From Patescibacteria group bacterium (GTDB taxonomy: Bacteria; Patescibacteriota; JABMPQ01; JAQVVF01), in the NCBI GenBank assembly GCA_028699085.1, contig JAQVVF010000001.1, forward strand, positions 28,333 through 92,332: a DNA stretch of 64,000 nucleotides, read 5' to 3'. The position numbers and the translations under genes were made by a program. Shown here piece after piece: positions 6,638 to 58,494 of the stretch. The notes beneath the pieces were generated by a model, which was not told the DNA's origin, did not search any database, and saw only the letters and a program-made list of their open reading frames with translations. Numbering within the stretch: position 1 is the stretch's first letter; every line of letters begins with the position of its first letter.

Positions 6638-7150
6638 TCAAAATGGCTGAATTGCTTTTTGAAACATAATACAATCCAGAACATCTCTTTGGTCTGGGCG
6701 TAGATGAATACAAGTAATGACTTTATTCTTATTCATTACGAAAATCAAAGTGTCATAACGACGGTATCGAATTGTCTCCTCCAAGCTTGGACTTTTAGTA
6801 CAAAAGCTCTTTAGAAACAGTTCGGCTTCCCCTGAAAGCTCAATAGCATCTGGTGCAGTGCACAAGGCAACAATTAGCATGCCTATTGTGGACAAACATA
6901 ATATACCTGTATCTTCCCACATTCTATCAAATGCTAGCAATGCTTCATCAATTCTGCCCAATTCCAGGAATCTTCTTAAGTAATTACATTGAGCTGCCAT
7001 TTCAATACGATGAGGCACTGAAATAACATGCTCTGGAGACTTAAAAAAGTTGAAAAAACCAATCTGTCCTTCTGGTATTCTCAACCTCCACTGGACAAAG
7101 CGTTCAATAGCATGAACGCTTACGTAAATCTCGGGAGTCGGGGAGCACAT
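6638..7150 (-). CDS. Hypothetical protein (170 aa), GC-richer, led by a strong SD (GGAGGG-N7-ATG), located right after tRNA-Lys
   Basis: Long ORF with its own terminator. The N-terminal HAIERF motif loosely resembles DUF4258-type small toxin motifs, which is speculative. Confidence 0.4.
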   Translation of the reverse strand: MCSPTPEIYVSVHAIERFVQWRLRIPEGQIGFFNFFKSPEHVISVPHRIEMAAQCNYLRRFLELGRIDEALLAFDRMWEDTGILCLSTIGMLIVALCTAPDAIELSGEAELFLKSFCTKSPSLEETIRYRRYDTLIFVMNKNKVITCIHLRPDQRDVLDCIMFQKAIQPF

Positions 7151-7296
7151 CTTTTTGCCCTCCTCTACTTGTTTCTTGTCTAGGGTGCAATAATATATAA
7201 TAAAACTTTTTAATTAAAAAGTCAAGTTATTTACCAAAATAAAAAAATATGCTAATCTAGATATAACAGTAAATATATTAAAAATAAAATAAAAAT

Positions 7297-7722
7297 ATGA
7301 AAGATTTTTTTCCAAAAGCATTTCGCATTTTTATGGTTGCAGCTATTTTAATTGGCGGCGGTCTCTGGTTAGATTATGAGGCCAAAAAAGGTACCAAAGA
7401 GGAATCAGCTTTGGGCAGTATTATTAAAGCATATCAGAATTTTACAAAAGTTAATAAAAAAACTACAGCTAAAAAAAAGAAGAAAAAGAAAACAACAGCT
7501 ACGAATGAAAAACAAGCAACTAATACAACTACAAATCAAGATACAACAAAGGAAACTGCCAAAAAAAAGAAAGCAACTACAAATACAGAGAATACTACAA
7601 CTCAACAAGATCCATTAAAAAGTACCGGTGGCTATATTGACGACACAATCAAAGAAAAAGCGCGACAGGAAGCTTTAGATGCAGCACGAGAAATTTACAA
7701 TCAAACACAGACTCAGCAATAA
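7297..7722 (+). CDS. Hypothetical membrane-anchored protein with a Lys/Thr-rich low-complexity region
   Basis: N-terminal hydrophobic helix, then a K/T-rich disordered stretch encoded by two A8 homopolymer tracts (about 7475 and 7562). Confidence 0.4.
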   Translation: MKDFFPKAFRIFMVAAILIGGGLWLDYEAKKGTKEESALGSIIKAYQNFTKVNKKTTAKKKKKKKTTATNEKQATNTTTNQDTTKETAKKKKATTNTENTTTQQDPLKSTGGYIDDTIKEKARQEALDAAREIYNQTQTQQ

Positions 7723-7723
7723 T

Positions 7724-8026
7724 ATGATTATCAAATTTACTACTAAATTTACTCAAAATTCTCTGAACTTAATGCGCAAAATTGGCTATATGCCATGGCG
7801 TGATCCAAGATCAAACACTAATAGTTATATTAGACACCTTGGAGCTTCTTATTATCCTCGTTTTCATGCTTATCCAAAACTTGATCAAGAGGGCAATTTT
7901 ATGATTGATTTGCATTTTGATTGGCGCAGACCAATGCACAAAATAGGCATCAAATCAACAGAAGGCGAGGAAAGTGATGTTGTCCAAAAAGAAGTAACTA
8001 GAATTAAATCAATTTTAGGACAATAA
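7724..8026 (+). CDS. Hypothetical protein (about 100 aa)
   Basis: ORF 7679-8026, trimmed to the ATG at 7724 to avoid overlap with the previous gene. An intrinsic terminator follows. No family was recognised. Confidence 0.35.
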   Translation: MIIKFTTKFTQNSLNLMRKIGYMPWRDPRSNTNSYIRHLGASYYPRFHAYPKLDQEGNFMIDLHFDWRRPMHKIGIKSTEGEESDVVQKEVTRIKSILGQ

Positions 8027-8298: not shown

Positions 8299-9330
8299 AT
8301 GACTAAGATTAATGAATTTAACCCAACTAAAGACATTCTAGAAATACTTAGTGGTTTGAAAAAAAGAACCAAAAGTATTTTGCTTAAAAGATTCGGTTTG
8401 GGAGAAAAGAATAAGATGACTTTAGAGAGCATCGGACAAGCTTACAAAATTACTCGTGAAAGAGTAAGACAAATTGAGTCTGTTGCTTTATCTGAATTAA
8501 AAAAATCTCCTAAAATTACTGAATTAAAAAAATATGAAGCAATGTTAGAAGACTTACTCAATGAACACGGCAAAATCATGGAGCATAATTTTTTAATGTC
8601 AGAATTTAGAAAAAAATATAATCTAGACCCTATTCACGATAATGCAATCGAATTTGTATTAAAAGTTTCTTCAAAATTTAGTTCAATCAAAGAAGATGAA
8701 GAGATTAAAAAGACTTGGTTATTAGTTGATGCAGATTTAAATTTTTCTAAAAAAGTTATTAATTCTTTTGTTTTAAATCTAGAAGGCAAAGGCAAACCAG
8801 TATTAGAAAATGAGCTTTCTAACAATTTTGAATTAGAAATCAAAGACAGTAAAACATTAATTTCATATTTATCATTGAGCAAAAAAATATTAAAGAATCC
8901 ATTCAACGAATGGGGATTATCTGATTGGAGAGAAATTGTACCAAAAGGTGTTAAAGATAAGGCATATATTGTTTTAGATAAATTTAATAAGCCAGCTCAT
9001 TTCACAAAAATTACGGAACTTATTAATTCTGCAAAATTTGATTGCAAAACCGCTATTCCTCAAACTGTACACAATGAATTAATCAAAGATCAAAGATTTG
9101 TGTTGGTCGGTAGAGGCATGTATGCTTTGAAGAAATGGGGTTTTCAACAAGGAACAGTTGCTGAAATTATTGAACAAGTTATCAAAGAATCTGGAAAAAC
9201 TTTATCTAAAGAAAATATTATAAATAAGGTACTAGAACAAAGATTTGTTAAAAAGAATACAATTGTTCTAGCTTTACAAAACAAACAAAGATTCCAAAGA
9301 GTTGATGGATTATATTGCTTGGCAAAATAA
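8299..9330 (+). CDS. Putative transcription factor: N-terminal sigma-70 region-4-like HTH plus C-terminal HARE-HTH-like domain
   Basis: N-terminal LKRFGLGEKNKMTLESIGQAYKITRERVRQIESVAL matches the sigma70 region 4 / RpoD C-terminal pattern. C-terminal FVLVGRGMYALKKWGF matches the HARE-HTH signature (FVKVGRGLFGLREW in RpoE-delta). It sits immediately upstream of the membrane + ATPase pair. Confidence 0.55.
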   Translation: MTKINEFNPTKDILEILSGLKKRTKSILLKRFGLGEKNKMTLESIGQAYKITRERVRQIESVALSELKKSPKITELKKYEAMLEDLLNEHGKIMEHNFLMSEFRKKYNLDPIHDNAIEFVLKVSSKFSSIKEDEEIKKTWLLVDADLNFSKKVINSFVLNLEGKGKPVLENELSNNFELEIKDSKTLISYLSLSKKILKNPFNEWGLSDWREIVPKGVKDKAYIVLDKFNKPAHFTKITELINSAKFDCKTAIPQTVHNELIKDQRFVLVGRGMYALKKWGFQQGTVAEIIEQVIKESGKTLSKENIINKVLEQRFVKKNTIVLALQNKQRFQRVDGLYCLAK

Positions 9331-9405: not shown

Positions 9406-10695
9406 ATGACTGATCTTCCGTCATTAGATATTGCTTCTCAATTGCGTGATTTTTTTAGCACGTTTGGTTTTATTTTTGTCCAAGCTTGGTGGGCAATTAT
9501 ACTTGGCTTAATTTTCTTAGCTTATTATGCTTTTTTTAGAATACAAAATAATAAATTTTTAGCTGGAATTGAATATGTTCTTCTGGCAATTTCTGTACCA
9601 GCAGATAGCGAAAAAAGTCCGAAATCAATGGAACAAGTTTTGGCCGGATTCCATGGTATTTATTCTCCGCCTAATTGGTCAGAAGTCTGGATCAAAGGAG
9701 AACAACAAGCTCATATTAGTTTGGAATTAGTTGGTATTAATGGTCATGTCAGATTTATTGTTAGAACTCCTATTAAGCTTCGTGATGCAATTGAGGCTCA
9801 CATTTACGCACAATATCCAGATGCCGAACTTACCGAAGTTGAGGATTATACAGAATTTATTCCTAACAAATGGCCGAATGATCAATATGAATTGTTCGGC
9901 ACAGATTTTAAATTAATGAAGCCAGATTCCTATCCGATTCGAACATATATGCAATTTGCTGAAGAATTCGATAAGGGTTTTATCGATCCGATTTCTGCCT
10001 TCACTGAAGTTATGGGCAAATTAAATAACGGCGAGCAAATTTGGCTACAAATAACGATTAGACCGGTCAATGATTCATGGAAAGAAGAAGGTGAAAAAGA
10101 AGTTGCAAAGCTTATTGGTAAAAAAGTTGAATTGCCAGAAGATTTTTTTCAAAAAACAGTTGTTAAAGGTTGGCATAACGTTTTAAGTGCAACTGATGCA
10201 ATTTTACAAGTTCCTGCTGCTGAATCTAAAGAAACAAAAAAAGAGTATGAGTCTTTGATGCAATTTTTATCTCCTGGAGAACAAGATGTTGTCACATCAA
10301 TTCAGAGAAATATTGCCAAAGTTGGTTTTGAAACAAAATTCCGTTTCATTTATGTTGCAAAAAAAGATGTCTATCAAAAAGGACGTGGTGTTGTTGCGAC
10401 ATTAGGCGCTTTAAAACTTTTGCACACTCAAAATCTTAATTGGTTTTGGTTAGACAAACATACTAAAACGAAACTTGATTATTGGAAATTTAGAATTCCT
10501 GGTAAGCAAAGAAAAATTGTTAGATATTATAAAGAGCGCGATATGGATGCTGGAGTGCCGCCTTGCATTTTGAGTATTGAGGAATTAGCTACTTTATTTC
10601 ATTTCCCTTATGTTTCAGTTGAATCTCCTTCAGTTATTAGCGCACAATCAAGTAAAGCCGAGCCACCTTCAGATTTACCTGTTGGCAGGCAATAA
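9406..10695 (+). CDS. Single-pass membrane protein (429 aa), paralog of the N-terminal domain of the fused ATPase at 61742 onward
   Basis: One TM helix (aa 20-44). The following domain aligns with the N-terminal 430 aa of the 61742 ORF (LAISVPADSEKSP...INGHVRFIVRTPIKLRDAIEAHIYAQYPDAE versus LISVPREVKQ...INGEIRFYVSTPKRLQDYIEKTIHSQYPKAY). Confidence 0.6.
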   Translation: MTDLPSLDIASQLRDFFSTFGFIFVQAWWAIILGLIFLAYYAFFRIQNNKFLAGIEYVLLAISVPADSEKSPKSMEQVLAGFHGIYSPPNWSEVWIKGEQQAHISLELVGINGHVRFIVRTPIKLRDAIEAHIYAQYPDAELTEVEDYTEFIPNKWPNDQYELFGTDFKLMKPDSYPIRTYMQFAEEFDKGFIDPISAFTEVMGKLNNGEQIWLQITIRPVNDSWKEEGEKEVAKLIGKKVELPEDFFQKTVVKGWHNVLSATDAILQVPAAESKETKKEYESLMQFLSPGEQDVVTSIQRNIAKVGFETKFRFIYVAKKDVYQKGRGVVATLGALKLLHTQNLNWFWLDKHTKTKLDYWKFRIPGKQRKIVRYYKERDMDAGVPPCILSIEELATLFHFPYVSVESPSVISAQSSKAEPPSDLPVGRQ

Positions 10696-10710
10696 TTTAA
10701 TTTTAAAAAC

Positions 10711-12186
10711 ATGGCAAATAATGATATATCCGTTTTCGCAACGACAAACTATCGTAACAAAAAAGTAGTTTTTGGTATCAAGCGCGATGATCGTCGCAGA
10801 CACATGTATGTGATTGGAAAAACTGGCATGGGCAAAACAAACCTTATGGAAAATATGGCGATTTCTGATATTCGTGCTGGTAATGGTATTTGTGTTGTCG
10901 ATCCGCATGGCGAGTTTGCTGAGAGAATGTTAGATTTTGTGCCTGCTAATCGTATTAACGATGTTATCTATTTTAATCCAGGTGATATGGATTATCCAAT
11001 TGCTTTTAATGTTATGGAGAATATCAATCCTGCATATAAACATTTAATATCATCAGGACTTATCGGCGTTTTTAAAAAAATCTGGGCCGATTCCTGGGGT
11101 CCTCGTCTTGAATATGTTTTAAGAAATTCAATTTTAGCCTTACTCGATTATCCAGGCTCAACAATGCTTGGCATTATGAGAATGCTTGTAGATAAAGAAT
11201 ACCGAAAAAAAGTTATTGATAAGATACAAGATCCAGTAGTCAAGCAATTCTGGGTTGAAGAATATTCAAAATATCCAGATAAATTTCAAACAGAAGCAAT
11301 CGCACCTATCCAAAATAAAGTCGGACAATTTTTATCAATTTCCTTAATCAGAAACATTGTTGGCCAGTCAAAGTCTACAATTGATATGCGTGAAGCAATG
11401 GACACAAAGAAAATTCTAATCCTCAATCTAGCAAAAGGAAGAATTGGTGAAGATGCTTCAGCATTATTTGGCGCTGTCATTATAACCAAGATTCAATTAG
11501 CCGCCATGTCTCGTGTTGATATTCCGGAAGAAGAGAGAGCTGATTTTTATCTTTATGTCGATGAGTTCCAGAATTTTGCAACTGAATCATTTGCTGATAT
11601 TTTATCCGAAGCTAGAAAATATCACTTGAATTTAATTATCGGCCATCAATATATCGGGCAATTAGAAACAGGAGGATCAACAAAAGTACGTGATGCTGTT
11701 TTTGGCAATGTCGGTACAATTGCTTGTTTTAGAGTTGGTGCAGCTGATGCTGAATTTTTAGTCAGCGAATTTGAACCAATTTTTACTGAAATTGATTTAG
11801 TTAACCTAACAAAATATAATATCTATCTGAAATTAATGATTGATGGTGTTGCTTCTCAAGCATTCAGTGCTACCACCTTACCGCCATCTACAAGAAAAGA
11901 GGGCAATGCTGAAAAAATTATTAAAGTTTCGCGTGAACGATATGCGACTGACCGCAAGATTGTTGAAGAAAGAATTTCTAAATGGTCAGAAAATATTGTC
12001 AGAGATGAAGCAACAATGCCACAAGCAAGATTTTTTCCAAAGAAAAAAGAAGCTCAGCAAAGTCATCAACCTTTCAAAAAAGCATTTGGTGAAATCTTCA
12101 AACAAAAATTACAAAAAGAAGAAACCAAGCAAGAAGAAAAACCAAGAGAGACATTAAAGCCAGGACAAGTAATAAAAATGGATTAG
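10711..12186 (+). CDS. P-loop NTPase of the FtsK/HerA/TraD-VirD4 (coupling-protein-like) superfamily, with a K/E-rich C-terminal tail
   Basis: Walker A (VIGKTGMGKT) preceded by DDRRRHMYVIG, Walker B (LYVDEFQNF), and motifs VVDPHGE and GHQY. Paralog of the C-terminal half of the 61742 ORF. Confidence 0.65.
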   Translation: MANNDISVFATTNYRNKKVVFGIKRDDRRRHMYVIGKTGMGKTNLMENMAISDIRAGNGICVVDPHGEFAERMLDFVPANRINDVIYFNPGDMDYPIAFNVMENINPAYKHLISSGLIGVFKKIWADSWGPRLEYVLRNSILALLDYPGSTMLGIMRMLVDKEYRKKVIDKIQDPVVKQFWVEEYSKYPDKFQTEAIAPIQNKVGQFLSISLIRNIVGQSKSTIDMREAMDTKKILILNLAKGRIGEDASALFGAVIITKIQLAAMSRVDIPEEERADFYLYVDEFQNFATESFADILSEARKYHLNLIIGHQYIGQLETGGSTKVRDAVFGNVGTIACFRVGAADAEFLVSEFEPIFTEIDLVNLTKYNIYLKLMIDGVASQAFSATTLPPSTRKEGNAEKIIKVSRERYATDRKIVEERISKWSENIVRDEATMPQARFFPKKKEAQQSHQPFKKAFGEIFKQKLQKEETKQEEKPRETLKPGQVIKMD

Positions 12187-13758: not shown

Positions 13759-15549
13759 ATGACATCACAACAACTCATCGATAAATATTTAGAATTTTTT
13801 AAAAGCAAAGGACATCAAATTATTCCTGGCGCATCGCTGATTCCAGAGCATGATCCATCTGTTTTATTTACAACAGCTGGCATGCATCCTCTAGTTCCTT
13901 TTTTATTAGGCGAAAAACATCCGCAAGGAAAAAGATTAACAGATCTTCAAAGATGCATAAGAACTGTTGATATTGATAATGTCGGCGATAACTGGCATTC
14001 GACTTTTTTTGAAATGCTTGGCAATTGGTCTCTGGGTGATTATTTTAAAGAAGATGCAATTAAATTGGCTTATGAATTTTTAACAAACAAAGAATATCTT
14101 AATATTTATCCAGGCAAATTATCAGTAACAGTTTTTGCTGGCGACGATACAGCGCCAAAAGATGACGAAGCTATTAGAACTTGGTTAAGTTTAGGTATTC
14201 CAGAAGAACGGATTTATGCTTTACCGAAAGAAGACAATTGGTGGGGACCAGCCGGTGAAACAGGTCCATGCGGACCAGACACTGAAATTTTTTATGACAC
14301 AGACAAGGAAAAATGCAGTGATAAATGTCAGCCAGGTTGTGGTTGCGGAAAATATGTTGAAATCTGGAATCTTGTTTTTATGTGTTACAACAAAACAAAA
14401 GAAGGAAGGTTTTTACCTCTAGCTCAAAAAAATATTGATACTGGCATGGGAGTAGAAAGAACTTTAGCCATTTTGCATACATTCGATAATTCTTATGAAA
14501 CAGAATTATTCAAGCCGGTCATGGATTTATTGGAAGACAAATTAAGCGGACATTCTCAAGATTTTAACGATGTCAGCAAAGATCCGATTAAATCAAAAAG
14601 AATTATTGCTGATCATATTCGCGCTTCTGTATTTTTATTGATGGACGGAGTTACTCCTTCAAATCTTGATCAAGGCTATATCTTAAGACGCTTAATTAGA
14701 CGCGCAGTTCGACACGCAAAATTATTAGAAATTAAAAAAGAAGAAAAAGTTAATCAACAAATTGCCAAGCTTTACATTAATATCTATAAAGAACGTTATC
14801 CAAAGCTTTTAGAACAGCAAGATATTATTATTAACGAGTTGCAGAAAGAAGAAGACAAATTCGAAATTTCCTTAAATAATGGACTTAAAGTTTTTGCTAA
14901 AATTACCACAAATTTAAAGGATAATAAAATTACAGGCTTAGATGCTTTTCATCTTTATGATACATATGGTTTTCCAATCGAAATGACAATAGAGTTGGCT
15001 AAAGAAAAAAATCTGACCGTTGACGAAAAAGAATTTAATCAAGAATTTATCAAGCATCAAGAGCTATCACGGAAAGGCGCTGAAAAAAAATTCAAAGGTG
15101 GACTTGCCGATCATTCCGAGATGACGACAAAATTGCATACCGCCACTCATTTATTGCATCAAGCCTTACGCCAAGTTTTAGGCGAACAAGTACAACAAAA
15201 AGGCAGCAACATTAATCCTGAAAGACTACGTTTTGATTTTAATCATGGCGAAAAGATGACTCCTGAGCAATTAGCTAATGTAGAAAAAATAGTTAACGAC
15301 CAAATTCAAAAAGGTTTGGATATTAAAATGGAAGAAATGTCAGTTGACGAGGCTAAAAAATCTGGGGCTATTGGTTTATTTGCTGAAAAATACGGAGATA
15401 AAGTCAAAGTCTATTCAATTGGTGATTTTTCAAAAGAAATATGTGGCGGTCCACATGCCAAAAATACTAAAGAATTACATCATTTTAAAATAAAAAAAGA
15501 GGAATCAAGCTCTGCTGGAGTTAGAAGAATCAAAGCGATTTTACAATAA
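13759..15549 (+). CDS. alaS: Alanyl-tRNA synthetase (short form lacking the C-terminal C-Ala region)
   Basis: N-terminal class II catalytic core (FFKSKGHQIIPGASLIPEHDPSVLFTTAGM) and editing-domain HxxxH (TATHLLHQAL). The ATG at 13759 is preferred over the TTG at 13744. Confidence 0.85.
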   Translation: MTSQQLIDKYLEFFKSKGHQIIPGASLIPEHDPSVLFTTAGMHPLVPFLLGEKHPQGKRLTDLQRCIRTVDIDNVGDNWHSTFFEMLGNWSLGDYFKEDAIKLAYEFLTNKEYLNIYPGKLSVTVFAGDDTAPKDDEAIRTWLSLGIPEERIYALPKEDNWWGPAGETGPCGPDTEIFYDTDKEKCSDKCQPGCGCGKYVEIWNLVFMCYNKTKEGRFLPLAQKNIDTGMGVERTLAILHTFDNSYETELFKPVMDLLEDKLSGHSQDFNDVSKDPIKSKRIIADHIRASVFLLMDGVTPSNLDQGYILRRLIRRAVRHAKLLEIKKEEKVNQQIAKLYINIYKERYPKLLEQQDIIINELQKEEDKFEISLNNGLKVFAKITTNLKDNKITGLDAFHLYDTYGFPIEMTIELAKEKNLTVDEKEFNQEFIKHQELSRKGAEKKFKGGLADHSEMTTKLHTATHLLHQALRQVLGEQVQQKGSNINPERLRFDFNHGEKMTPEQLANVEKIVNDQIQKGLDIKMEEMSVDEAKKSGAIGLFAEKYGDKVKVYSIGDFSKEICGGPHAKNTKELHHFKIKKEESSSAGVRRIKAILQ

Positions 15550-15551
15550 AA

Positions 15552-15572
15552 AAATCACCACAAAGGTGATTA
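15552..15572 (-). terminator. Hairpin ATCACC-ACAAA-GGTGAT. A U-tract follows on the minus strand, so it terminates the minus gene at 15570-15947 and perhaps alaS
   Basis: Read directly. The A-run at 15546-15553 lies on the plus strand. Confidence 0.5.
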
Positions 15573-15947
15573 GAAACGTGCGCGCTTAGTTTTTCTTCGA
15601 GGCTTCCTTGCGAAAGTAAAAACAAATTTCGTAATTCCGAATTCTGAAGAGCTATGTCTTTTTTCGACATCTTCTTTCTTATCGAGGTTATAAAGACCTG
15701 CTAAAAATTCAGCAAAGAAAGTGGCAGTGAAGAATCGATTATTCAAGTCATGACATTGATTGTAATCCTGCAAAAAAGTTACACTTCTACTTCTCGTTTC
15801 TATTCCAAATGGATAAGTTTTATCATGAAAGCCAGGAAATAAAACTTCTTTGCCAACTTTATCAAAGAGTTCAACGTCCGTAGAACTTCCTCTTTTAAAA
15901 GTGATGATTAGCGTATAGCCAACTTTAATAAGCTTTTTTTGCCCCAT
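15570..15947 (-). CDS. Hypothetical protein (125 aa), GC-richer, strong SD (AGGAGG-N6-ATG), basic C-terminal tail
   Basis: The ORF starts at MGQKK at 15947. RBS read directly. No family was recognised. Confidence 0.4.
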   Translation of the reverse strand: MGQKKLIKVGYTLIITFKRGSSTDVELFDKVGKEVLFPGFHDKTYPFGIETRSRSVTFLQDYNQCHDLNNRFFTATFFAEFLAGLYNLDKKEDVEKRHSSSEFGITKFVFTFARKPRRKTKRARF

Positions 15948-16149
15948 CTTTTTCCTCCTGACTTTAGAGCTGGTCAATATAACATATCTTTAACAAAAGT
16001 CAAGACCAGAAAATATCTTGAAACATAGTTGTTTATAATAAAAATTAAAATGTGGTATAATAACATATAACAAGTTAACAATTAACAGTTAACAAATTTT
16101 AAGTTCGTATGTGTTAATTGTTAAATGTTAATAGTTAATTGTTTACGAT

Positions 16150-17415: not shown

Positions 17416-17536
17416 CTAATAACCAAATTACAATAATCAGAGAATAACCAATAATCAATAAACAATTCTAAAATCTCTGATCATTTAGCTATTGGATATT
17501 GGTTATTCTCTGGTTATTGGTTATTGATTATTAAAA
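17416..17536. repeat. Imperfect palindrome built from AATAACCAA / TTGGTTATT and CAGAGAATAACCAATA / TATTGGTTATTCTCTG words
   Basis: Read directly. The same word family occurs at 54670-54777 and in the 130-nt repeat copies. Confidence 0.6.
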
Positions 17537-17537
17537 T

Positions 17538-42303: not shown

Positions 42304-42416
42304 TTGAACTATATTGGCTTATTTAAAGAAAAATTAAGTTAAAGTATTGACAATAATAATAAAATATGCAATACTAATATGCTAGCCGTGGGATAAAAAA
42401 GAGAGGGGAGAAAACA

Positions 42417-42593
42417 ATGCAGAACAATGCAGATCTGAGCTGGGTGAAAGAGATAAAAAACACACCTGAGGAAAAAGAGGTAAATGAACTCCTGAGGAAC
42501 GGATGGAAACTCATAGCAATCACTCCTACTACACTTTTTTGTCCGGGAATACAAGTGTGTGAAACTTACAACATTTATATTCTTGGACGTTAA
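42417..42593 (+). CDS. Small protein (58 aa), possibly DUF4177-like, with its own promoter, a strong SD (GAGGGGAG) and a terminator
   Basis: Hand-translated MQNNADLSWVKEIKNTPEEKEVNELLRNGWKLIAITPTTLFCPGIQVCETYNIYILGR. ELLRNGWKLIAITP and YILGR loosely match the DUF4177 pattern (LNE.G.EGWELV...FKR). GC-richer. Confidence 0.35.
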   Translation: MQNNADLSWVKEIKNTPEEKEVNELLRNGWKLIAITPTTLFCPGIQVCETYNIYILGR

Positions 42594-42620
42594 ATGAACC
42601 CTTTATTGTTTTTTTGCTGA

Positions 42621-42646
42621 AGAGCCAGATAACTGGTTCTTTTTTT
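42621..42646 (+). terminator. Rho-independent terminator AGAGCCAG-ATAA-CTGGTTCT plus T6
   Basis: Read directly after the small gene. Confidence 0.65.
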
Positions 42647-44889: not shown

Positions 44890-44919
44890 AATTTGAACCT
44901 TAAACAAGGAGAGAAAAAC

Positions 44920-47473: not shown

Positions 47474-47569
47474 TTTTGACTACAGATTGACAATTCTGTG
47501 GTTTTCTTATAACTTATAGCTGTTAGTGGTTGTTTTGAATTTTTACTTTTAACTTTTTAATTTTTAAAC

Positions 47570-48835
47570 ATGCTTGATATTAATTTAATCAGAAAAGACA
47601 AAAAATTAGTCATGAAAGCACTTCATGACCGTAATATGAAGTTTGATATTGATAAACTTCTTGATCTTGATTTTGAAAAAAGAAAACTACAAACGAAAGT
47701 TGATGAACTTCGTGCTAAACAAAATACAGCCTCAGATGAAATTGCCAAACTTAACGGACCAGAAAAACAACAAGCGATTCTTGATATCAAAGGCACATCA
47801 GAAAGATTGAAAGATTTAGAATCAAAATGTAGCAAGCTTGATGAAGAGCTATCGAAATTAATGCTTGAACTTCCAAATATTCCGCGACCTGATGTCAAAG
47901 TTGGTAAGAATGAATCAGAAAATGAAATTATAAAAAAAGTTGGCGAGCCAACAAAATTTGATTTTGAGCCAAAAGATCATTTAGCTTTAGGCGAAAAATT
48001 AGATTTAATTGATACAAAAAGAGCTGGCAAGGTTTCTGGTTCTCGTTTCAATTACTTAAAAAGAGAATTAGTTTTATTGGAATTTGCTCTAGCAAGATTT
48101 GTTATTGATGAATTAACAAAAGAAGGATTTATTCCAGTAATTCCGCCTCAAATTGTTTCTGAAAAAGCAATGCAAGCAATGGGCTACCTTGCTCATGGCG
48201 GAGAAGAAGAAACTTATCATTTTGCCAAAGACAAACAATACTTTGTTGGCACTTCAGAACAATCAGTGATTCCAATGCACATGAACGAAGTTTTGAAAGA
48301 GTCAGACTTGCCAAAACGTTACATTGCTTTCTCAACTTGTTTTCGCCGAGAAGCAGGATCTTATGGTAAGGATACATACGGAATTTTACGTCAGCACCAA
48401 TTTGATAAATTAGAGATGCTGGTGCTTGCAAAACCAGAGGATTCTGAGAAAGAACAAGAATTTCTATTGAATATAGAGGAAAGATTAGTTAAAGCTTTAA
48501 ATTTGCCTTATCAAGTTGTTAAAATGTGCACTGGAGATCTAGGCGATCCTGCAGCTCGCAAATATGACATTGAAACTTGGATTCCATCACAAAAAAAATA
48601 TCGCGAAACGCATTCTTGTTCGACTTGTACTGATTTTCAAGCTCGTCGTTTAAATATTAAATACCGAGATACTAAAAAAAATAAAAATGAATTAGTCCAC
48701 ACATTAAATGCTACAGGATTTGCTATCGGTAGAATTTTGATTGCTATCATGGAAAATAATCAACAAAAAGATGGCTCCATAAAAATTCCAGAGGTTTTGT
48801 GGGGTTATTCTGGAATTAAAGAAATCAAGCGATGA
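47570..48835 (+). CDS. serS: Seryl-tRNA synthetase
   Basis: N-terminal coiled-coil arm plus class II core (FRREAGSYGKDTYGILRQHQFDKLE). Confidence 0.9.
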   Translation: MLDINLIRKDKKLVMKALHDRNMKFDIDKLLDLDFEKRKLQTKVDELRAKQNTASDEIAKLNGPEKQQAILDIKGTSERLKDLESKCSKLDEELSKLMLELPNIPRPDVKVGKNESENEIIKKVGEPTKFDFEPKDHLALGEKLDLIDTKRAGKVSGSRFNYLKRELVLLEFALARFVIDELTKEGFIPVIPPQIVSEKAMQAMGYLAHGGEEETYHFAKDKQYFVGTSEQSVIPMHMNEVLKESDLPKRYIAFSTCFRREAGSYGKDTYGILRQHQFDKLEMLVLAKPEDSEKEQEFLLNIEERLVKALNLPYQVVKMCTGDLGDPAARKYDIETWIPSQKKYRETHSCSTCTDFQARRLNIKYRDTKKNKNELVHTLNATGFAIGRILIAIMENNQQKDGSIKIPEVLWGYSGIKEIKR

Positions 48836-49983
48836 TTAATCACAAAACTTGGGTTGAAATAAGCAAGCAAGCTTTAATTTTTAATCTAAAACAATTTAGA
48901 AAAATAATTGGCCAAGATAAAAAATTGGCTGCAATTATAAAATCCAATGCTTATGGCCATGGACTGCAAGATACAGCCCAAATTTTAGCTAAGTCAGAAG
49001 CAGATTGGTTTGGTGTTGATTCAATTGATGAAGCAATCGCAATAAAACAAGAAAACAATAAAACAATAAAACAAATTATTATTTTAGGCTATACTGTTTA
49101 CAATCATTTATCTGAAGTTATTAAAAATGAGTTTAGGCAAATAGTTTATAATTCAGAAACTATAAAAAAACTTGGCGAGCTTTCTTCAAAGTTAAAAAAG
49201 AGAACTTATCTTCATATCAAACTAGAAACAGGTACATCAAGGCAAGGAGTTTTGGAAAAAGATTTATCAAAAATTGTTAAATTAATTAAGAAATATCCTT
49301 ATCTAGTTTTAGAAGGCGCATCAACTCATTTTGCGAATATCGAAGATACAACTGATCATTCTTATGCTGAACAACAATTAAAAAATTTTCAGCGTCTAAT
49401 AAATTTAGCAGAAAAAGAATACGGCCAAAAAATAAAAATAAAACATACTGCTTGTTCAGCTGCAACAATATTATTTCCAGAAACTCATTTTGATTTAGTA
49501 AGACTTGGAATTAGCATGTATGGATTATGGTCATCTAGCGAAACAAAAGTTTCGGCTTCCCACAAAAAGATTAATTTAAGTTTAAAACCTGTATTATCCT
49601 GGAAAACAATAGTTGCCCAAGTTAAAAAGCTGAAATCTGGGACACCGATTAGTTATGGACTTACAGAAACCTTGCATCATGATTCAACAATCGCAATATT
49701 ACCAATCGGATACAATGACGGTTTTGATCGTAAATTATCAAACATCGGCAATGTTTTAATAAAAGGTAAACGTTGTAAAATATTAGGTCGTATTTGCATG
49801 AATATGTGTGTTGTTGATGTTAGCCATATCAAAAACCTCAAACCAGAAGATGAAGTAGTTTTAATCGGCAAGCAAGGTAAAGAACAAATAACAGCTGATG
49901 AAATTGCTAAGAAGATAAATACGATAAATTACGAAATTGTAACAAGGATTAATCCACTAATAAAAAGAGTAATAGTTAAATAA
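48832..49983 (+). CDS. alr: Alanine racemase
   Basis: PLP site AIIKSNAYGHG is present. 383 aa. Confidence 0.85.
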   Translation: MINHKTWVEISKQALIFNLKQFRKIIGQDKKLAAIIKSNAYGHGLQDTAQILAKSEADWFGVDSIDEAIAIKQENNKTIKQIIILGYTVYNHLSEVIKNEFRQIVYNSETIKKLGELSSKLKKRTYLHIKLETGTSRQGVLEKDLSKIVKLIKKYPYLVLEGASTHFANIEDTTDHSYAEQQLKNFQRLINLAEKEYGQKIKIKHTACSAATILFPETHFDLVRLGISMYGLWSSSETKVSASHKKINLSLKPVLSWKTIVAQVKKLKSGTPISYGLTETLHHDSTIAILPIGYNDGFDRKLSNIGNVLIKGKRCKILGRICMNMCVVDVSHIKNLKPEDEVVLIGKQGKEQITADEIAKKINTINYEIVTRINPLIKRVIVK

Positions 49984-50113
49984 ATAACCAAGAAACAAGA
50001 TACAAACAATTCTCAAATTACAAATTAAAATAATCAAACTCGTCGTCGTGTTTGGAAATTAGTAATTTGGATTTGAAATTTGTTTGTCAATTGTATCTTG
50101 TTTCTTGATTATT
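49984..50113 (+). repeat. Copy 3 of the roughly 130-nt structured intergenic repeat
   Basis: Aligns with 4186-4320 and 40660-40797. Confidence 0.75.
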
Positions 50114-50917: not shown

Positions 50918-52020
50918 TGGAGATATTCTTTACTAAATTTAATTTTATTCTAGCCTTTGCTTTGGCTTTTTTGATTACTGTATTATTTACATATTTAGTT
51001 AGAAAATTAGCTCTTCAATATAATATAGTCGATCGTCCAAACAGGAAAAGAAAAATCCATAAGAGCAATATTCCACTTATGGGAGGTTTAGCCGTTTTTA
51101 TCGGCTTTTTTATTACCTTAAGTTATTTTGTTTTAATAGACCGTGATTTCTTCGGCGGTTATATGCTTCCAAAATATATTCTAGGCCTAGCATTAGGCGG
51201 ATTAATCTTAATTATTGGTGGAATAATTGATGACAAATATAATCTAAGTCCAAAACAGCAATTTATTTTTCCGATAATTTCTTGTCTTGTTGTCATTATT
51301 TCTGGCATTGGCATTACTTTTATCAGTAATCCAATTGGTAACACAATAAATTTAGACGAAATCAGAATTAAGCTTTTTACAATTAATAATATTCCTTATT
51401 TTTTTACAGTTTTTGCTGATATTTTCACCATGATTTGGTTATTAGGCATGATTTATACTACAAAATTTTTAGATGGCATGGATGGACTTGTTTCCGGAAT
51501 ATCTGTAATTGCTTCAGTGATATTATTCTTTTTAAGTTTAAGTACGAAGGTAATGCAACCAGAAACTGCATTGCTTTGCATAATTCTAGCTGGAGCATCT
51601 TTAGGATTCTTAATCTTTAATTTTCATCCTGCCAAGATCTTTTTAGGAGAGGGAGGCAGTACATTCATTGGATTTATGTTAGGATCTCTAGCCATAATTT
51701 CTGGCGGAAAAATTGCTACAGCATTATTAATAATGGGCATTCCAATTCTTGACGTAATCTGGGTAATTTTAAGAAGAATTTTTAAACACAAATCTCCATT
51801 TCAAGCTGATCGTCAACATCTGCATTTTCGTCTTTACGATCTAGGATTCTCACAAAGGAGTGCTGTCATCTTTTTATGGTCAATTTCTGCATTATTTGGG
51901 CTTTTTGCGTTGTTTGTCCAAGGAAAAGAAAAGATACTAGCTTTTATCATTTTAATCGGCTTGATGACAATTATGGCAATATTACTATTAATTTTTTACA
52001 AGAAAAAACAGACTAGATAG
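50917..52020 (+). CDS. MraY/WecA-family polyprenyl-phosphate sugar-1-phosphate transferase (GT4)
   Basis: 10-11 TM helices. DRPNRKRKIHKSNIPLMGG is closer to WecA/TagO than to the MraY TPTMGG motif. Confidence 0.7.
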   Translation: MEIFFTKFNFILAFALAFLITVLFTYLVRKLALQYNIVDRPNRKRKIHKSNIPLMGGLAVFIGFFITLSYFVLIDRDFFGGYMLPKYILGLALGGLILIIGGIIDDKYNLSPKQQFIFPIISCLVVIISGIGITFISNPIGNTINLDEIRIKLFTINNIPYFFTVFADIFTMIWLLGMIYTTKFLDGMDGLVSGISVIASVILFFLSLSTKVMQPETALLCIILAGASLGFLIFNFHPAKIFLGEGGSTFIGFMLGSLAIISGGKIATALLIMGIPILDVIWVILRRIFKHKSPFQADRQHLHFRLYDLGFSQRSAVIFLWSISALFGLFALFVQGKEKILAFIILIGLMTIMAILLLIFYKKKQTR

Positions 52021-52024
52021 TCTG

Positions 52025-52426
52025 TTAATGAGCAATCGATTGAGGAGCAATCTGTTGTGGAAAATGTAGTCCAAATCTAGAAATCTTATAAACCGTATTG
52101 TCATCAATTATTTCAAGAGGAATTTCTTGTTCTTGACAATGCAAACTGATTATTTTCATATAACCGTCACGACCATCAATAGTTGGAGCAATAAGTGCAA
52201 ATCCAAGCGTGTAACCAGCTTTCAAAACATGCATGCAAGAGCTTAAATCATTGCACACATAAACATCGAATCCTGCATCTTCCAGCGCTTTCAAAAGTGC
52301 TCTACATCTCTTTACTTCACATTCCATCAAGAGTACCATCATTTTTTTTCCAGAAGTACAGCCTGCAGTTTTACTGCCAGGATCCTGGCCGTTTGCAGGC
52401 TTCTCGGAAGCTTTTTTCGCTGGCAT
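52025..52426 (-). CDS. Degenerate receiver-like (pseudo-REC) protein, GC-richer, SD GGAGGG
   Basis: REC-like alpha/beta layout, but the phospho-acceptor Asp position reads LIAPTIDGRDG (D replaced by A). Confidence 0.4.
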   Translation of the reverse strand: MPAKKASEKPANGQDPGSKTAGCTSGKKMMVLLMECEVKRCRALLKALEDAGFDVYVCNDLSSCMHVLKAGYTLGFALIAPTIDGRDGYMKIISLHCQEQEIPLEIIDDNTVYKISRFGLHFPQQIAPQSIAH

Positions 52427-52546
52427 GTTGATTTCCCTCCAACCATCAGCGACCCAACCTTAGTTTAACAGATTATTTACAACCACACAAAAATTTTTAA
52501 AGTGGATATCTAATAAAAAAAGACAGGCAACTGTCTTATATAGTAC

Positions 52547-52888
52547 TCAAGCTAGAATTAAAAGAACAATTTCGATCAAAATAGAAATATCTGTTTTGCC
52601 CCAAAAATAATCATAATATCCCTCGAGATCTTCTCTTGCAGTGCTCATTACAATACAAGGAATTTTATGCTCATCGCAATAGGCCTTTACAACATCGCCA
52701 TTTGCAATCGGCATATAAAAGTCAGTGACTGCCAAATGAATATTTCTTTCTGTTTGAAGTACTCTTAGTGCATCATGCCCATTTCGCGCATGCACTACTT
52801 CAAACCCCTTCATTTCCAACTCTATTTCAATCAAATCACGCAAGTCAATATTATCGTCAACAACTAATATCTTTTTGCTTCCCCGCAT
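52547..52888 (-). CDS. Stand-alone response-regulator receiver (CheY-like REC) domain protein, with a G8 tract abutting the start codon
   Basis: Motifs ILVVDDN, LAVTDFYMP...NG and IVMSTA are present. A C8 run at 52889-52896 (G8 on the coding strand) lies immediately 5' of the ATG. Confidence 0.6.
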   Translation of the reverse strand: MRGSKKILVVDDNIDLRDLIEIELEMKGFEVVHARNGHDALRVLQTERNIHLAVTDFYMPIANGDVVKAYCDEHKIPCIVMSTAREDLEGYYDYFWGKTDISILIEIVLLILA

Positions 52889-52994
52889 CCCCCCCCTGTT
52901 GTCGCTGACAGCAATTTATATATACAACATTATAATAAAAAAGTCAATACAAAAAGTCTTGACCAAAGTGGAAAACAAGCATATACTTAAATAT

Positions 52995-53350: not shown

Positions 53351-53395
53351 TGTATAAAAAAAGACATATATTATGTCTAAAAAAGTACGTATTAA

Positions 53396-53932
53396 TTAAG
53401 ATGTCGAAGATATTCTCCTGTACAAAATCAAGTCATTTAACGAAATGTTAAGATGTGTAGCTTTATCATGAGAATTAAAAACTTCATAAAGGTTATTTCC
53501 GATTATGTTTGCAATGTGCCCTTCAATGTAAGCACCTTTTTTAAATGCTCTGATAAAATCTCCAACCTTAAGCTCAACGAATACATTTTTGCCTTCAGCA
53601 AATATCATCTCTGAACTAGGTATTTCAAGTATTTCTGCCGAACCATTTTTCAACATTTTTTCCAAAAAGAGTAATGAATATTTTCGAGTTTGTTGAATGC
53701 CATCGATGCAATAACAAACTTCGACAAAACTGTGGAAAAATGGTTGTGCTAATCCGTCAATAACTCGTTTTACAATTTCAACATCTTGAGCAACAACTGT
53801 TGCAGAAACAATAAGAATTTTCTTCTTAAGCCATAAAAAGCCACATCTATGAGTTAATATCAATCTTAAAGTAGTGCCCAACGGAAACTTTTCAAAAGCA
53901 GCACCAGTTTCCCATTGCAACTGCTCGCTCAT
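53396..53932 (-). CDS. Hypothetical protein (about 178 aa), GC-richer, SD GGAGG-N4-ATG
   Basis: ORF starting at MSEQLQWETG. No family was recognised. Located downstream of ybaB-recR. Confidence 0.35.
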   Translation of the reverse strand: MSEQLQWETGAAFEKFPLGTTLRLILTHRCGFLWLKKKILIVSATVVAQDVEIVKRVIDGLAQPFFHSFVEVCYCIDGIQQTRKYSLLFLEKMLKNGSAEILEIPSSEMIFAEGKNVFVELKVGDFIRAFKKGAYIEGHIANIIGNNLYEVFNSHDKATHLNISLNDLILYRRISSTS

Positions 53933-54065
53933 TTTTCCTCCATAACCTGCCGACTTCGGCAGGCAAAATAGAATGTGCAAGTATCTAATTTAGCAAACAT
54001 AGTATTTAATGTCAAATAAAAAAAAGCTATTCAGCTCTTTCAAAATTACATATTTTTGTTATATG

Positions 54066-54669: not shown

Positions 54670-54777
54670 AATAACCAATTATCAATAACCAAAAAATAAT
54701 CAATATATAATAACCAATAATCAAATTTTAGTTATTAGATTTTTGGTTATTCGTTGATTATTAGTTATTGATTATTT
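54670..54777. repeat. Imperfect palindrome of AATAACCAA / TTGGTTATT and AATCAATAA / TTATTGATT words between ybaB and recR
   Basis: Read directly. Same word family as 17416-17536. Confidence 0.55.
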
Positions 54778-55069
54778 ACATCTGTGGCATCTGAATTTCG
54801 CCAGCTTGCATTTTTCTAACCATCATCATCTGTAATTCTTTATTTGCTTTAGAAAAAGCATCTTTAATTGCATTTTGTAATTTGTCTTGATTGGAAGCTT
54901 CTAATAATGATTCATCAATAAAAACTTCTTTGATTTTTTGGCTGCCATCCATAGAAATTTTTACTTGGCCGTTCAAACTCTCTCCAGTGATTAATTCAGA
55001 TTCTAATTGTTTTTTCATTTCACTAGCTTGCTTTCTTAAGCTAGCTAAATTTTTTAATTGTTCAAACAT
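54776..55069 (-). CDS. ybaB: Nucleoid-associated protein YbaB/EbfC
   Basis: 97 aa. N-terminal MFEQLKNLASLRKQASEMKKQLE is typical of the family. Sits upstream of recR. Confidence 0.8.
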   Translation of the reverse strand: MFEQLKNLASLRKQASEMKKQLESELITGESLNGQVKISMDGSQKIKEVFIDESLLEASNQDKLQNAIKDAFSKANKELQMMMVRKMQAGEIQMPQM

Positions 55070-56569: not shown

Positions 56570-56666
56570 ACAAAATTTAGTGATATATCAATATATCATT
56601 TTTACATAAAAAAACAATCCTCTACATTGAGGATAATTTTTTAAATAAATATTCAATATTAAATAT

Positions 56667-58007
56667 TTAATATTTTAAAATTTTTGATCCTTTTTCAGTA
56701 TCTTCTACTTCATATCCTAACTTTATAATTTCTTTTCTCAGTTCGTCAGCTTTTTGCCAATCTTTATTCTTTCTTGCATTTTCACGTTCTTTAACAAGTT
56801 TCAAAACTTCTTCAGGAATTATGATCTCATCAACTTTATTTAGATTTAAACCTAATACTTTATCAAAATCAATCAGAGTAGCTTTTTTGTCAGAATCATC
56901 TAAACCAGATTTCAATAATTCCCAAACAATCGTTAAAGCTTTTGGCATATCCAAATCATTATTGATCGCTTCCAAAAATTTTTCTTTATATTCTTTAGAA
57001 ATTTCGCCAGAATCTTTAAAATCTTTAATTCTTTCGCAAAGTTTATTCAAAGAATTTTTAGCAGACTTTAAACCAGACCAATTAAAATTTAATTTTGTTC
57101 TATAATGTGCTTGCAAACATAAATATCTAAAATCAAGAGGGGAAAAGAATTCTTTTTCAAGATCTTTCAACGTATAAAAGTTATGTAGACTCTTAGACAT
57201 TTTTGCATTATCAACAAGCAAATGTTCACCATGTATAAAATAATTTGCAAAAGGTTTATCTGTTTTAGCTTCTGCTTGAGCAATCTCATTTTCATGATGA
57301 GGAAAAATTAGATCAATTGCTCCGGCATGAATATCTAAAGTATCACCAAGTATATCTTGAGCCATTGTTGAACATTCAATATGCCATCCTGGCCTGCCTT
57401 TTCCTAATTTTGTTTCCCAATAAATTTCGCCGTCATCTTGATCATAACTTTTCCACAAAACAAAGTCAGACAAATTTTCTTTTTCGTAATTATCATGCTT
57501 GACTCTTGCACCAACCTTTAAGCCAGATTTATCAAGCTTTGCTAATTTTCCATAATCTTTGAATTTCTCAATTTTAAAATAGACTGATCCGTCAATTGCT
57601 TTATAAGCAAAGCCTTTATTAATTAATTCTTGAATAAAATCAGCCATTTTCTCAATATATTTTGTGGCATTTGTAATAACATCAGGCTTAATAATGTTTA
57701 AACTTTTTAAATCTTCAAAAAATTTATTTTCAAAATCTTTTGTTAATTTTGCAAATTCTTTTTTATTACCATTTGAAGCTTTAATAGTTTTATCATCAAC
57801 ATCAGTAATATTCATAACGTGTTTGACTTCAAAGCCATCATATAGTAGGACACGTTTTAATAGATCTTCAAAAATGTAAGTTCGAAAATTTCCAATATGG
57901 GCATAATCATAAACTGTTGGCCCGCATGTATATAATCCAACTTCTTTGTCTTTTAGCGGTTTAAATTCCTCAATTTTTCTCGATAATGTATTGTATATTT
58001 TTAGCAT
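56667..58007 (-). CDS. cysS: Cysteinyl-tRNA synthetase
   Basis: Class I HIGH motif (HIGNFRTY), KMSKS motif, and Cys-binding CGPTVYD. Confidence 0.9.
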   Translation of the reverse strand: MLKIYNTLSRKIEEFKPLKDKEVGLYTCGPTVYDYAHIGNFRTYIFEDLLKRVLLYDGFEVKHVMNITDVDDKTIKASNGNKKEFAKLTKDFENKFFEDLKSLNIIKPDVITNATKYIEKMADFIQELINKGFAYKAIDGSVYFKIEKFKDYGKLAKLDKSGLKVGARVKHDNYEKENLSDFVLWKSYDQDDGEIYWETKLGKGRPGWHIECSTMAQDILGDTLDIHAGAIDLIFPHHENEIAQAEAKTDKPFANYFIHGEHLLVDNAKMSKSLHNFYTLKDLEKEFFSPLDFRYLCLQAHYRTKLNFNWSGLKSAKNSLNKLCERIKDFKDSGEISKEYKEKFLEAINNDLDMPKALTIVWELLKSGLDDSDKKATLIDFDKVLGLNLNKVDEIIIPEEVLKLVKERENARKNKDWQKADELRKEIIKLGYEVEDTEKGSKILKY

Positions 58008-58143
58008 AGTAATTTAAAAATAACATTAAATTCAATAATTTTCAAATATAATAGGGAAGGTAAGCAGTCCATCTTGTGTTTTTCAGACAAAAGATTATAA
58101 TATTACAAACAAGTTCTTTCAAACCAAGAAGGAGGAAAAGAAA

Positions 58144-58494
58144 ATGGGACTGATAGTTGGAATCATTGTTGTCATCATACTTATTTTTGGAGTCTTTTTT
58201 GTTCTTGGCGCTGCAATTGGCGGAATCTTAGGAGTTCTTGGCGTTGTCGCTTTGATTTGGATTACCGCTGGATTTATTATTTCCAATACTAAAGAAGGCA
58301 GTATTAGCGCAATAGTTGGTATTATTGCTTTAGTTTTGACTATCCTTTTCTTTTCAACTGGAGCTTGTAAGCATGTATATGTTGCATGCAATAATGTTCC
58401 TTATGGCGTTTTAGATTCCATCAGTCCATTCCCAGGAAAATCAATGGTCTGTAACGGAAAAGTAGTTTGGAGATCAAACGGAAAATGTCCATGA
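58144..58494 (+). CDS. Small membrane protein (116 aa) with a Cys-rich C-terminus, SD GGAGGA
   Basis: Three hydrophobic helices followed by C...C...C...C. A terminator follows at 58524-58554. Confidence 0.4.
   Translation: MGLIVGIIVVIILIFGVFFVLGAAIGGILGVLGVVALIWITAGFIISNTKEGSISAIVGIIALVLTILFFSTGACKHVYVACNNVPYGVLDSISPFPGKSMVCNGKVVWRSNGKCP

Follow-up and report, generated by a model that had tools for sequence, protein, structure and literature searches.

The question raised by a 64 kb stretch of DNA from a Patescibacteria group bacterium (64,000 nucleotides of contig JAQVVF010000001.1, positions 28,333 to 92,332; hereafter the window) is why a scattered minority of its genes is led by a strong Shine-Dalgarno (SD) motif when the core genes start without one. 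The first-pass annotation had listed nine SD-led genes, described them as visibly richer in G+C (GC), and offered two explanations, namely horizontal acquisition from SD-using donors of higher GC, or a distinct class of translation initiation reserved for a specific regulon. The analysis indicates that two initiation architectures coexist in this lineage and are split by gene class, with core genes on one side and lineage-specific cassettes on the other.

SD strength was scored as the duplex energy (dG) of ACCUCCUUA against positions -18 to -3, taking the minimum over the candidate starts in the first 30 codons; taking the best of all candidate starts is a procedure biased towards finding an SD. 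SD energy, GC and GC at third codon positions (GC3) were computed for 65 window genes, and the SD energies fell into two groups. The nine genes (6638, 15570, 25057, 42417, rdgB, 52025, 52547, 53396 and 58144, named apart from rdgB by their lower coordinate), about one in eight (~14%), had dG values of -8.5 to -12.5 kcal/mol, and every motif was confirmed where it had been placed. The remaining 56 genes reached -6.9 kcal/mol or weaker, and the gap persisted with best-of-starts scoring. An AGGAGG-type core was counted in seven of the nine (those listed are 6638, 15570, 25057, 52025, 53396 and 58144), and weaker or atypical motifs were present in 42417 (GAGAGGGGAG), rdgB (AAGGAGAG, -8.5 kcal/mol) and 52547 (a run of eight G residues, G8). 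The spacer between the SD and the start codon was 4-9 nt in eight of the nine, the exception being 52547, in which the G8 run touches the ATG. The absence of an SD from the core genes was likewise upheld, in 56 of 65 genes; alignments to NCBIfam profiles start at residues 1-11 of the open reading frames (ORFs) and pin down the core gene starts.

Two controls excluded chance. Hits were seen at the true SD position in 8 of 70 window ORFs, against 0-2 of 70 at positions shifted by -45, -30, +40 or +70 nt. GGAGG was followed by a start codon and an ORF of 50 aa or more in 10 of its 44 occurrences, and the CCTCC control in 0 of 44. A possible tenth SD, the GGAGG at 62554, was discarded because it falls within a long VirB4-like ORF.

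Eight of the nine SD-led genes are stand-alone, monocistronic cassettes, with rdgB as the outlier. The cassettes are built of a sigma-70-like promoter (TTGACx or TTGTGT, 16-17 nt, TAxxxT/A), a GC-richer 5' untranslated region (UTR) of 20-48 nt and the SD, followed by a short coding sequence and an intrinsic terminator (a hairpin with a T-run). The first cassette (6600-7225, reverse strand) comprises the promoter TTGACT-17-TATTAT (7197-7225), the SD GAGGAGGG (7158-7165), a coding sequence at 6638-7150 and a terminator (6600-6625), and it adjoins a tRNA at 6373-6443. In its 170 aa product, residues 56-108 form a PPR-like helical motif, and PDB profile matches to designer PPR proteins were obtained (E ~3e-8); PPR motifs are rare in bacteria. 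The second (15548-16003, reverse strand; promoter TTGACT-16-TATATT, 15976-16003; SD AGGAGG, 15954-15959; terminator, 15548-15569) encodes, at 15570-15947, a 125 aa protein with a basic C-terminus and no family match. The third (25003-25260, forward strand; promoter TTGACT-17-TAATAT, 25003-25031; SD AAGGAGGG, 25045-25052; terminator, 25239-25260) starts with GTG and encodes an acidic, Pro/Cys-rich product of 52 aa (25057-25215); this ORF is the member least certain to be a protein. The fourth (42347-42646, forward strand) has a promoter-like TTGACA-17-AATACT (42347-42375), an SD-like motif at 42401-42410, a coding sequence for 58 aa (42417-42593) and a terminator (42621-42646).

The fifth to seventh cassettes are all on the reverse strand. 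A putative promoter TTGTGT-17-TAAACT (52462-52490), the SD GGAGGG (52435-52440) and a terminator (52003-52024) frame the fifth (52003-52490), which encodes a degenerate CheY-like receiver domain lacking the acceptor Asp (52025-52426, 133 aa). The sixth (52515-52947) has the promoter TTGACT-17-TATATA (52919-52947), the G8 run (52889-52896), a terminator (52515-52536) and a coding sequence (52547-52888) for a 113 aa receiver domain (Pfam Response_reg, E 7e-11). A G8 homopolymer in the place of an SD is unusual at this base composition (32% GC), and the run might give rise to phase variation of translation by strand slippage. In the seventh (53356-54015), the promoter TTGACA-17-TAAATT, with a TG, is at 53987-54015, the SD TGGAGGA at 53936-53942 and the terminator at 53356-53378. 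A 5' UTR hairpin (CCTGCCG-N4-CGGCAGG, 53946-53963) lies directly 5' of its SD, and the 178 aa product (53396-53932) has no family match; an AlphaFold model of it from a two-sequence alignment was unusable (predicted local distance difference test score 31.6). The eighth cassette (58074-58554, forward strand; promoter TTGTGT-16-TATAAT, 58074-58101; SD AAGGAGGA, 58129-58136; terminator, 58526-58554) encodes 116 aa (58144-58494), of which the N-terminal two-thirds are hydrophobic and the C-terminus is Cys-rich; its sequence suggests a membrane protein that ends in a Cys-rich tail. The outlier rdgB (44906-45504, forward strand; coding sequence 44920-45504, 194 aa; Pfam Ham1p_like, E 9e-41) directly follows lysS, has a moderate SD at 44906-44913, and is without a promoter or terminator of its own.

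No functional theme common to the SD-led cassettes was found. A TTGCAC/TCGCAC box after the -10 element was present only in 6638, 53396 and the cassettes of some relatives, which is too few for it to be called a shared operator, and no other shared UTR motif or operator was found. Pairing of the SD within the 5' UTR was inconsistent across the cassettes and was not conserved in the 6638 family. Known non-coding RNAs were considered for the GC-richer spots and rejected, as Rfam (gathering and E-value thresholds) gave one tRNA only. The cassettes 52025, 52547 and 53396 cluster near ~52000, where the cumulative GC skew has its maximum and gene orientation switches from + to -.

Relatives were collected by scanning species-representative genomes with the wecA-like protein of the window, which returned Patescibacteria metagenome-assembled genomes labelled Falkow-, Magasanik- and Parcubacteria (L-numbers denote related loci or assemblies, and P-numbers homologous proteins). 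The closest species-representative, L001 (wecA-like protein 95% identical, DNA ~80%), is syntenic with the window at 41.3-61.4 kb, and nearer strains were found among the JGI and Logan assemblies (L085-L094; DNA identity 87-100%). The window would thus derive from a genome of the Parcubacteria / Falkow-Magasanikbacteria type. In close relatives, six of the nine SD-led genes (6638, 15570, 25057, 52025, 53396 and 58144) are found at an unchanged position; four of these six families extend to more distant relatives, where promoter, SD and terminator are kept.

The 6638 family (P0001-P0003, recovered by exhaustive HMMER search) is syntenic in L081-L084 and L088, beside a p141 homologue and near dnaJ. 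Across the relatives of this family (four assemblies), the protein is 33-49% or, in a narrower count, 45-49% identical where its neighbours are 85-95% identical, and the promoter, the SD (GAGGAGGGCAAGA) and the terminator are conserved. A metagenome scan with the alignment of this family brought up a single contig, one already known. Homologues of 15570 (P0011, 97%; P0012, 86%) were confined to the same lineage and are syntenic in L088-L090, with a ratio of nonsynonymous to synonymous substitution rates (dN/dS) of 0.22. The 25057 ORF was called as a 52 aa gene in L088, where its two nonsynonymous and zero synonymous differences are too few to judge coding constraint. Orthologues of 52025 retain position and SD in L001 (66%), L002 (30%) and L085 (98.5%), with a dN/dS of 0.05-0.19. 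Those of 53396 are 46% identical in L001, with promoter, hairpin stem and SD kept, and 90% identical in L085 (P0010), with a dN/dS of 0.24-0.45; the hairpin in L001 (upstream of 12706) has an identical stem and the loop AAGT vs AGAA. Orthologues of 58144 are 85% identical in L001, with the SD kept, and 92% identical in L085 (dN/dS 0.12-0.19).

In the comparison with L001, the dN/dS was 0.19 for 52025, 0.45 for 53396 and 0.19 for 58144, against 0.03-0.14 for the neighbours, and values for the SD-led genes were 0.05-0.24 against the closer strains. Overall, the SD-led genes had a dN/dS of 0.05-0.45 compared with 0.02-0.17 for most neighbours, and the ratio was below 0.5 in every measurable orthologue pair. 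The SD-led proteins appear to be small, lineage-restricted and fast-evolving but constrained.

The three remaining genes vary among relatives. The 42417 cassette is precisely absent from L001, and an identical protein is encoded at the same site in L091-L094. The rdgB gene is conserved in L085 and L091, another gene stands in its place in L001, and its distant homologues (L045 and L056) lack an SD. Gene 52547 is absent from L085 and L001; in both, the promoter and the terminator-bearing 3' end survive and the ~300 nt between them are gone. These remnants indicate deletion in the relatives of an ancestral gene. An extra SD-led gene is present in L001.

The same division was seen in a pooled set of 55 Patescibacteria loci (875 ORFs), for which the Firmicutes loci of the same scan served as the control. 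No SD was found in 93% of the pooled ORFs. A dG of -8 or below was reached by 6.9% and of -10 or below by 4.7% (41 of 875), against 3-4% and ~1% (6-15 ORFs) at the shifted positions, giving an SD-led share of ~5% after background subtraction. In the Firmicutes loci, 45% of the ORFs were SD-led and no association with GC was seen. Among the GGAGG-led genes of the window and relatives together, the motif was preceded by A in 31 of 44 and had a 4-9 nt spacer in 41 of 44. The SD-led class of the relatives includes hypothetical small proteins and, by sequence reading without a family search, a MazF-like toxin, a DUF559-like endonuclease and argG. A conserved family of 61-70 aa with a strong SD, divergent to a wecA-like gene, was also found in more distant Patescibacteria relatives (L017, 9710-9895; L026, 9677-9889; L031, 9723-9908; L041, 3130-3315).

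The GC of the SD-led genes was 0.378 compared with 0.329 for the others (Mann-Whitney U test, p = 6e-5), and the GC3 was 0.291 compared with 0.231 (p = 5e-4); the difference persisted among genes of up to 210 aa. The description of these genes as GC-richer therefore holds when quantified, although the difference is modest and the distributions overlap. Several genes without an SD have a high GC (mreB, 0.39-0.40; infA, 0.386; rpsK, 0.379). For this reason, the bimodality proposed in the first-pass annotation is retained for SD strength and withdrawn for GC: only SD strength is bimodal, and GC is merely shifted. The GC3 at fourfold sites in the window was 0.236 in the SD-led genes and 0.208 in the others (p = 0.18), whereas at twofold sites it was 0.302 and 0.202, respectively (p = 3e-8). 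Cys was 3.6-fold higher and Lys and Asn were lower in the SD-led proteins than in core proteins. An excess concentrated in twofold codons and amino acid usage would point to effects of codon choice and amino acid composition and not to a different mutational background. Among the pooled relatives, the SD-led ORFs had a GC excess of +0.033 (p = 5e-8), most control positions showed no significant excess, and the fourfold-site excess was +0.042 (p = 0.012).

The 56 genes without an SD are spread over the whole window (1-64000) and include hrcA-grpE-dnaK-dnaJ, infA-rpsM-rpsK-rpsD-rpoA-rplQ-rplM-rpsI, murA, both mreB, mreC and mreD, pbp2, frr, folD, greA, alaS, proS, lysS, serS, cysS, alr, murI, rplU, recR and dnaB. 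Their leaders have a GC of ~20%; between -20 and -1, G accounts for just 2-10% of the bases at most positions, A is abundant at -12, -11 and -6 to -2, and T stands at -1. For hrcA, infA, serS and the sigma-like gene, a canonical promoter lies 42-59 nt upstream, and these core genes are therefore leadered and not leaderless. Judged from part of one genome, the organism belongs to the SD-poor genome type with A-rich leaders. The UTR GC was 0.40 for the SD-led genes and 0.20 for the others, and the folding energy of the region from -30 to +35 was -10.3 kcal/mol compared with -4.9 kcal/mol (p = 0.002).

The data show the two architectures with their statistics, the conservation of the SD, coding constraint, synteny and turnover. 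The most economical explanation, in which the anti-SD, the dependence on it and the role of structure in the link with GC are inferred, is as follows. By default, initiation would use no SD, and the very A/U-rich, nearly G-free and weakly structured leaders of the core genes would suffice for a start. The ribosome would nevertheless keep a working anti-SD; conserved, correctly spaced and A-preceded GGAGG motifs imply that SDs are still read. The cassette messages, with GC-richer and more structured start regions, would be barred from the open A/U-rich route and would hence depend on pairing between SD and anti-SD. Given such dependence, selection would preserve the SD while the protein diverges. 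In descriptive terms, the suggestion of a distinct translation-initiation class is borne out by a 5' UTR architecture of its own, by conservation of the SD and by recurrence of the pattern throughout the lineage. Non-SD initiation has been tied to reduced structure around the start codon (Nakagawa 2017, PMC5397173), and non-SD genomes that retain an anti-SD have been described (Lomsadze 2018, PMC6028130).

Several points weigh against this explanation. No rRNA, and hence no 16S rRNA 3' end, was found in the window or in 80 related loci, and an anti-SD motif was detected in only 48% of Parcubacteria 16S genes (Tsurumaki 2022, PMC9297842); for both reasons, a functional anti-SD is something we infer. 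Structure as a cause is only correlative, the SD itself raises the G+C of the UTR, and the GC-rich core genes mreB and infA do without an SD. Within the class, rdgB and the ORFs of 52 aa (25057) and 58 aa (42417) fit less well than the others, and background accounts for roughly one in two of the pooled hits when the cut-off is -8. The sequence examined comprised the window (64 kb, 32.4% GC) and ~1 Mb from related loci, all centred on a single gene. The coexistence of two architectures divided by gene class is, with these points taken into account, still favoured over the alternatives.

The alternative of recent transfer supposes that the SD-led genes were imported from higher-GC, SD-using donors and kept the signal and composition of the donor. 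Compositionally atypical acquired genes and their amelioration were reportedly described by Lawrence and Ochman in 1997. Beyond the higher GC of the SD-led genes, this reading draws on the presence or absence of 42417, 52547 and rdgB among close relatives, the extra gene in L001, the partly accessory or selfish appearance of the toxin, the endonuclease and argG among the relatives' SD-led genes, and the tRNA beside 6638. It also draws on 58144, for which the synonymous divergence (dS) from L001 (17833-18183) was 0.35 when that of all neighbours was 0.86-1.18; the low dS may reflect either a more recent exchange or constrained synonymous sites. As a general explanation, transfer is nevertheless not supported: close relatives carry six of the nine genes in synteny, four families persist with their signals in more distant ones, and the polymorphism of 52547 is a deletion in the relatives and not an insertion in the window. 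The search for donor phyla covered three families (6638, 53396 and 15570), whose proteins were searched exhaustively or by index, and returned matches within the same lineage only. An earlier concatenated query of seven hypothetical proteins, which gave no matches, was rejected as a sign of ORFans, since single-protein searches later found homologues.

PHROGs, PADLOC and phage tblastn searches, run to test for an origin in phages or defence systems, returned only generic receiver-domain matches of 52547 and one marginal PHROG match of the 42417 protein (E 0.0015). No integrase, transposase or target duplication was seen at the two indels examined, and no attachment-site-like repeat for tRNA-linked integration of 6638 was found. 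The fourfold-site GC3 was not significantly raised in the window, and the 6638-family gene in relatives is not GC-richer than its surroundings. The SD-led genes resemble the horizontally acquired 'atypical genes' described elsewhere (PMC6028130) in being short, compositionally deviant and patchy, with their own expression signals. They differ in that their GC deviates upward, mainly through amino acid usage and twofold codons and not through fourfold sites, and in that most are syntenic and old in the lineage, with no donor homologues or mobility genes found. REC and Ham1 are universal families and were not placed by phylogeny. Transfer is possible for 42417 (absent from L001) and for rdgB (replaced in L001, and with distant homologues lacking an SD), and is improbable for the class as a whole. 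Most of the cassettes have instead long been part of the lineage, in which each is gained or lost as a unit, and are not recent imports.

A second alternative, regulated specialised translation, assumes that the anti-SD is normally sequestered, as in Bacteroidia (by bS21, bS18 and bS6), and that the SD-led cassettes form a translational regulon, turned on jointly once the anti-SD is exposed. The SD-poor genome with A-rich leaders is as in Bacteroidia, the SD is strongly conserved within a coherent minority class, two members carry receiver domains suggestive of signalling, some SDs are predicted to be partly paired, and Flavobacterium johnsoniae provides a precedent (PMC9976891, PMC7797042, PMC13000453). 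However, the cassettes share no operator or UTR motif beyond a generic promoter and SD, with the TTGCAC box in some only, and their functions are heterogeneous. In addition, bS21 is often absent in Parcubacteria (PMC9297842), the genes for rpsU, bS18 and bS6 were not present in the window or related loci, and a strong SD in F. johnsoniae is found on essentially one gene (rpsU), against about one in eight here. Such a regulon is considered doubtful. Similarly tentative is the proposal that SD pairing is retained as a dedicated, possibly switchable channel for rapidly evolving, lineage-specific small proteins, which would give two separable translation programmes; it would be analogous to the bS21/rpsU circuit of Bacteroidia but much broader. 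The proteins served by such a channel (receiver-domain, PPR-like and membrane/Cys-rich) are perhaps involved in host or phage interaction.

The weakest alternative, that GGAGG arose by chance before mis-called or spurious ORFs in locally GC-richer DNA, can appeal to the fewer stop codons and more frequent G-rich words of such DNA, to the 3-4% of hits that the choice among several starts yields at control positions, and to the 25057 ORF, which has no measurable coding constraint, but it is very improbable and largely refuted by the enrichment at the true position, the CCTCC control, the dN/dS values, the domain matches (REC, Ham1 and PPR-like), the framing of the ORFs by promoters and terminators, and the conservation of the motifs across relatives.

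With two coexisting architectures as the favoured reading, the locus can be set against systems already described. Structure-dependent choice between SD and SD-independent initiation in plastids and bacteria was reportedly set out by Scharff et al. in 2011 (PLoS Genet). As in the published account of such a choice (PMC5397173), the SD-less starts here are unstructured and A/U-rich and the SD-led starts tolerate structure; the difference is that the split follows gene class and a compositional shift and is conserved across a clade. In the non-SD 'group B' Bacteroidia (PMC6028130; Jha 2021, PMC7797042; McNutt 2023, PMC9976891), most genes are likewise SD-less, with A-rich leaders on leadered messages, and a small minority has a strong, conserved SD. 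The present case differs in phylum, in the SD-led share (~5-14%, against about one gene or ~3% weak matches), and in that the SD-led genes are accessory, fast-evolving cassettes and not rpsU. The loss of the anti-SD in part of Parcubacteria (PMC9297842) concerns the same superphylum and also an unusual SD/anti-SD biology, but that work covers rRNA and ribosomal protein features and not gene-level SD usage, for which no account in Patescibacteria was found in the literature searched. The conserved canonical SDs argue that this lineage keeps its anti-SD. The non-SD genome type is known, and the SD-led cassette class is a variant of that type.

Additional features were noted on the core side of the window. 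A CIRCE-like inverted repeat (TTAGCACT-N9-AGAGTGCTAA) at 190-216, upstream of hrcA, is as expected for an HrcA-controlled chaperone operon. An imperfect palindrome of ~130 nt (CCAAGAAACAAGAAACAAG ... CTTGTTTCTTGTATCTTGG) is dispersed between core genes (dnaK and dnaJ, pbp2 and folD, alr and murI), at 4182-4318, 40655-40796 and 49979-50113, with degenerate copies at 17431-17556 and 54676-54800; it is conserved in relatives (L001, 13853-13946; L085; L086), and could be an element like the repetitive extragenic palindromes or miniature inverted-repeat transposable elements, or an RNA processing or terminator element. A second intergenic repeat (997-1100, 26613-26652, 34744-34852, 36130-36199 and 47533-47572) abuts the ATG of grpE, mreB, proS, the second mreB and serS (...TTTTGAxTTTTTACTTTTTAATTTTTAAAC ATG), and is preceded in three copies by a short palindrome (AAAATGCAAAATGACA / TGTCATTTTACATTTT). 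This repeat may represent a leader, or a regulatory module, that core genes have in common.

The gene content of the window comprises hrcA-grpE-hsp20-dnaK-dnaJ, mnmA, a short AlaRS of 601 aa, an ftsA-like gene, infA-rpsM-rpsK-rpsD-rpoA-rplQ-rplM-rpsI, murA, two mreB, mreC/D, pbp2, frr, rseP, proS, folD, greA, lysS, serS, alr, murI, a wecA/mraY-like gene, rplU, recR, ybaB, dnaB, cysS and VirD4/VirB4-like ATPases. Unusual core-side proteins are encoded at 8299-9330, 9406-12186, 61737-64000 and 42811-44889. One core-side protein of 343 aa combines an N-terminal match to sigma-70 region 4 with a delta/HARE-HTH-like part, two paralogous sets of DUF8128 and a TrwB/VirD4-like ATPase are present (10786-10925 resembles 63001-63140), and the LysRS has a C-terminal HDIG domain. 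Comparison with close strains was mosaic (5600-26000 vs L088; 43050-63464 vs L085): the ribosomal protein/rpoA block and the 6638 cassette were 100% identical and the sequence elsewhere 87-95%, and the dS between adjacent genes ranged from 0 to 0.5. The mosaic identity and the uneven dS indicate recombination between strains.

On the practical side, a gene caller trained on a single start model will get the starts of one class wrong, and recent horizontal transfer cannot safely be read from an SD together with a higher GC. The cassettes of promoter, SD and terminator provide a simple sequence mark for the fast-evolving accessory proteome of the candidate phyla radiation (CPR). Why SD-poor bacteria keep an anti-SD is an open question, to which the answers so far rest on single genes (rpsU and prfB) in Bacteroidia. 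Here, an uncultured CPR lineage has a sizeable class of genes with canonical SDs under selection where the rest of its genes have dropped them, and this makes it a natural system for what sets the choice of initiation route.

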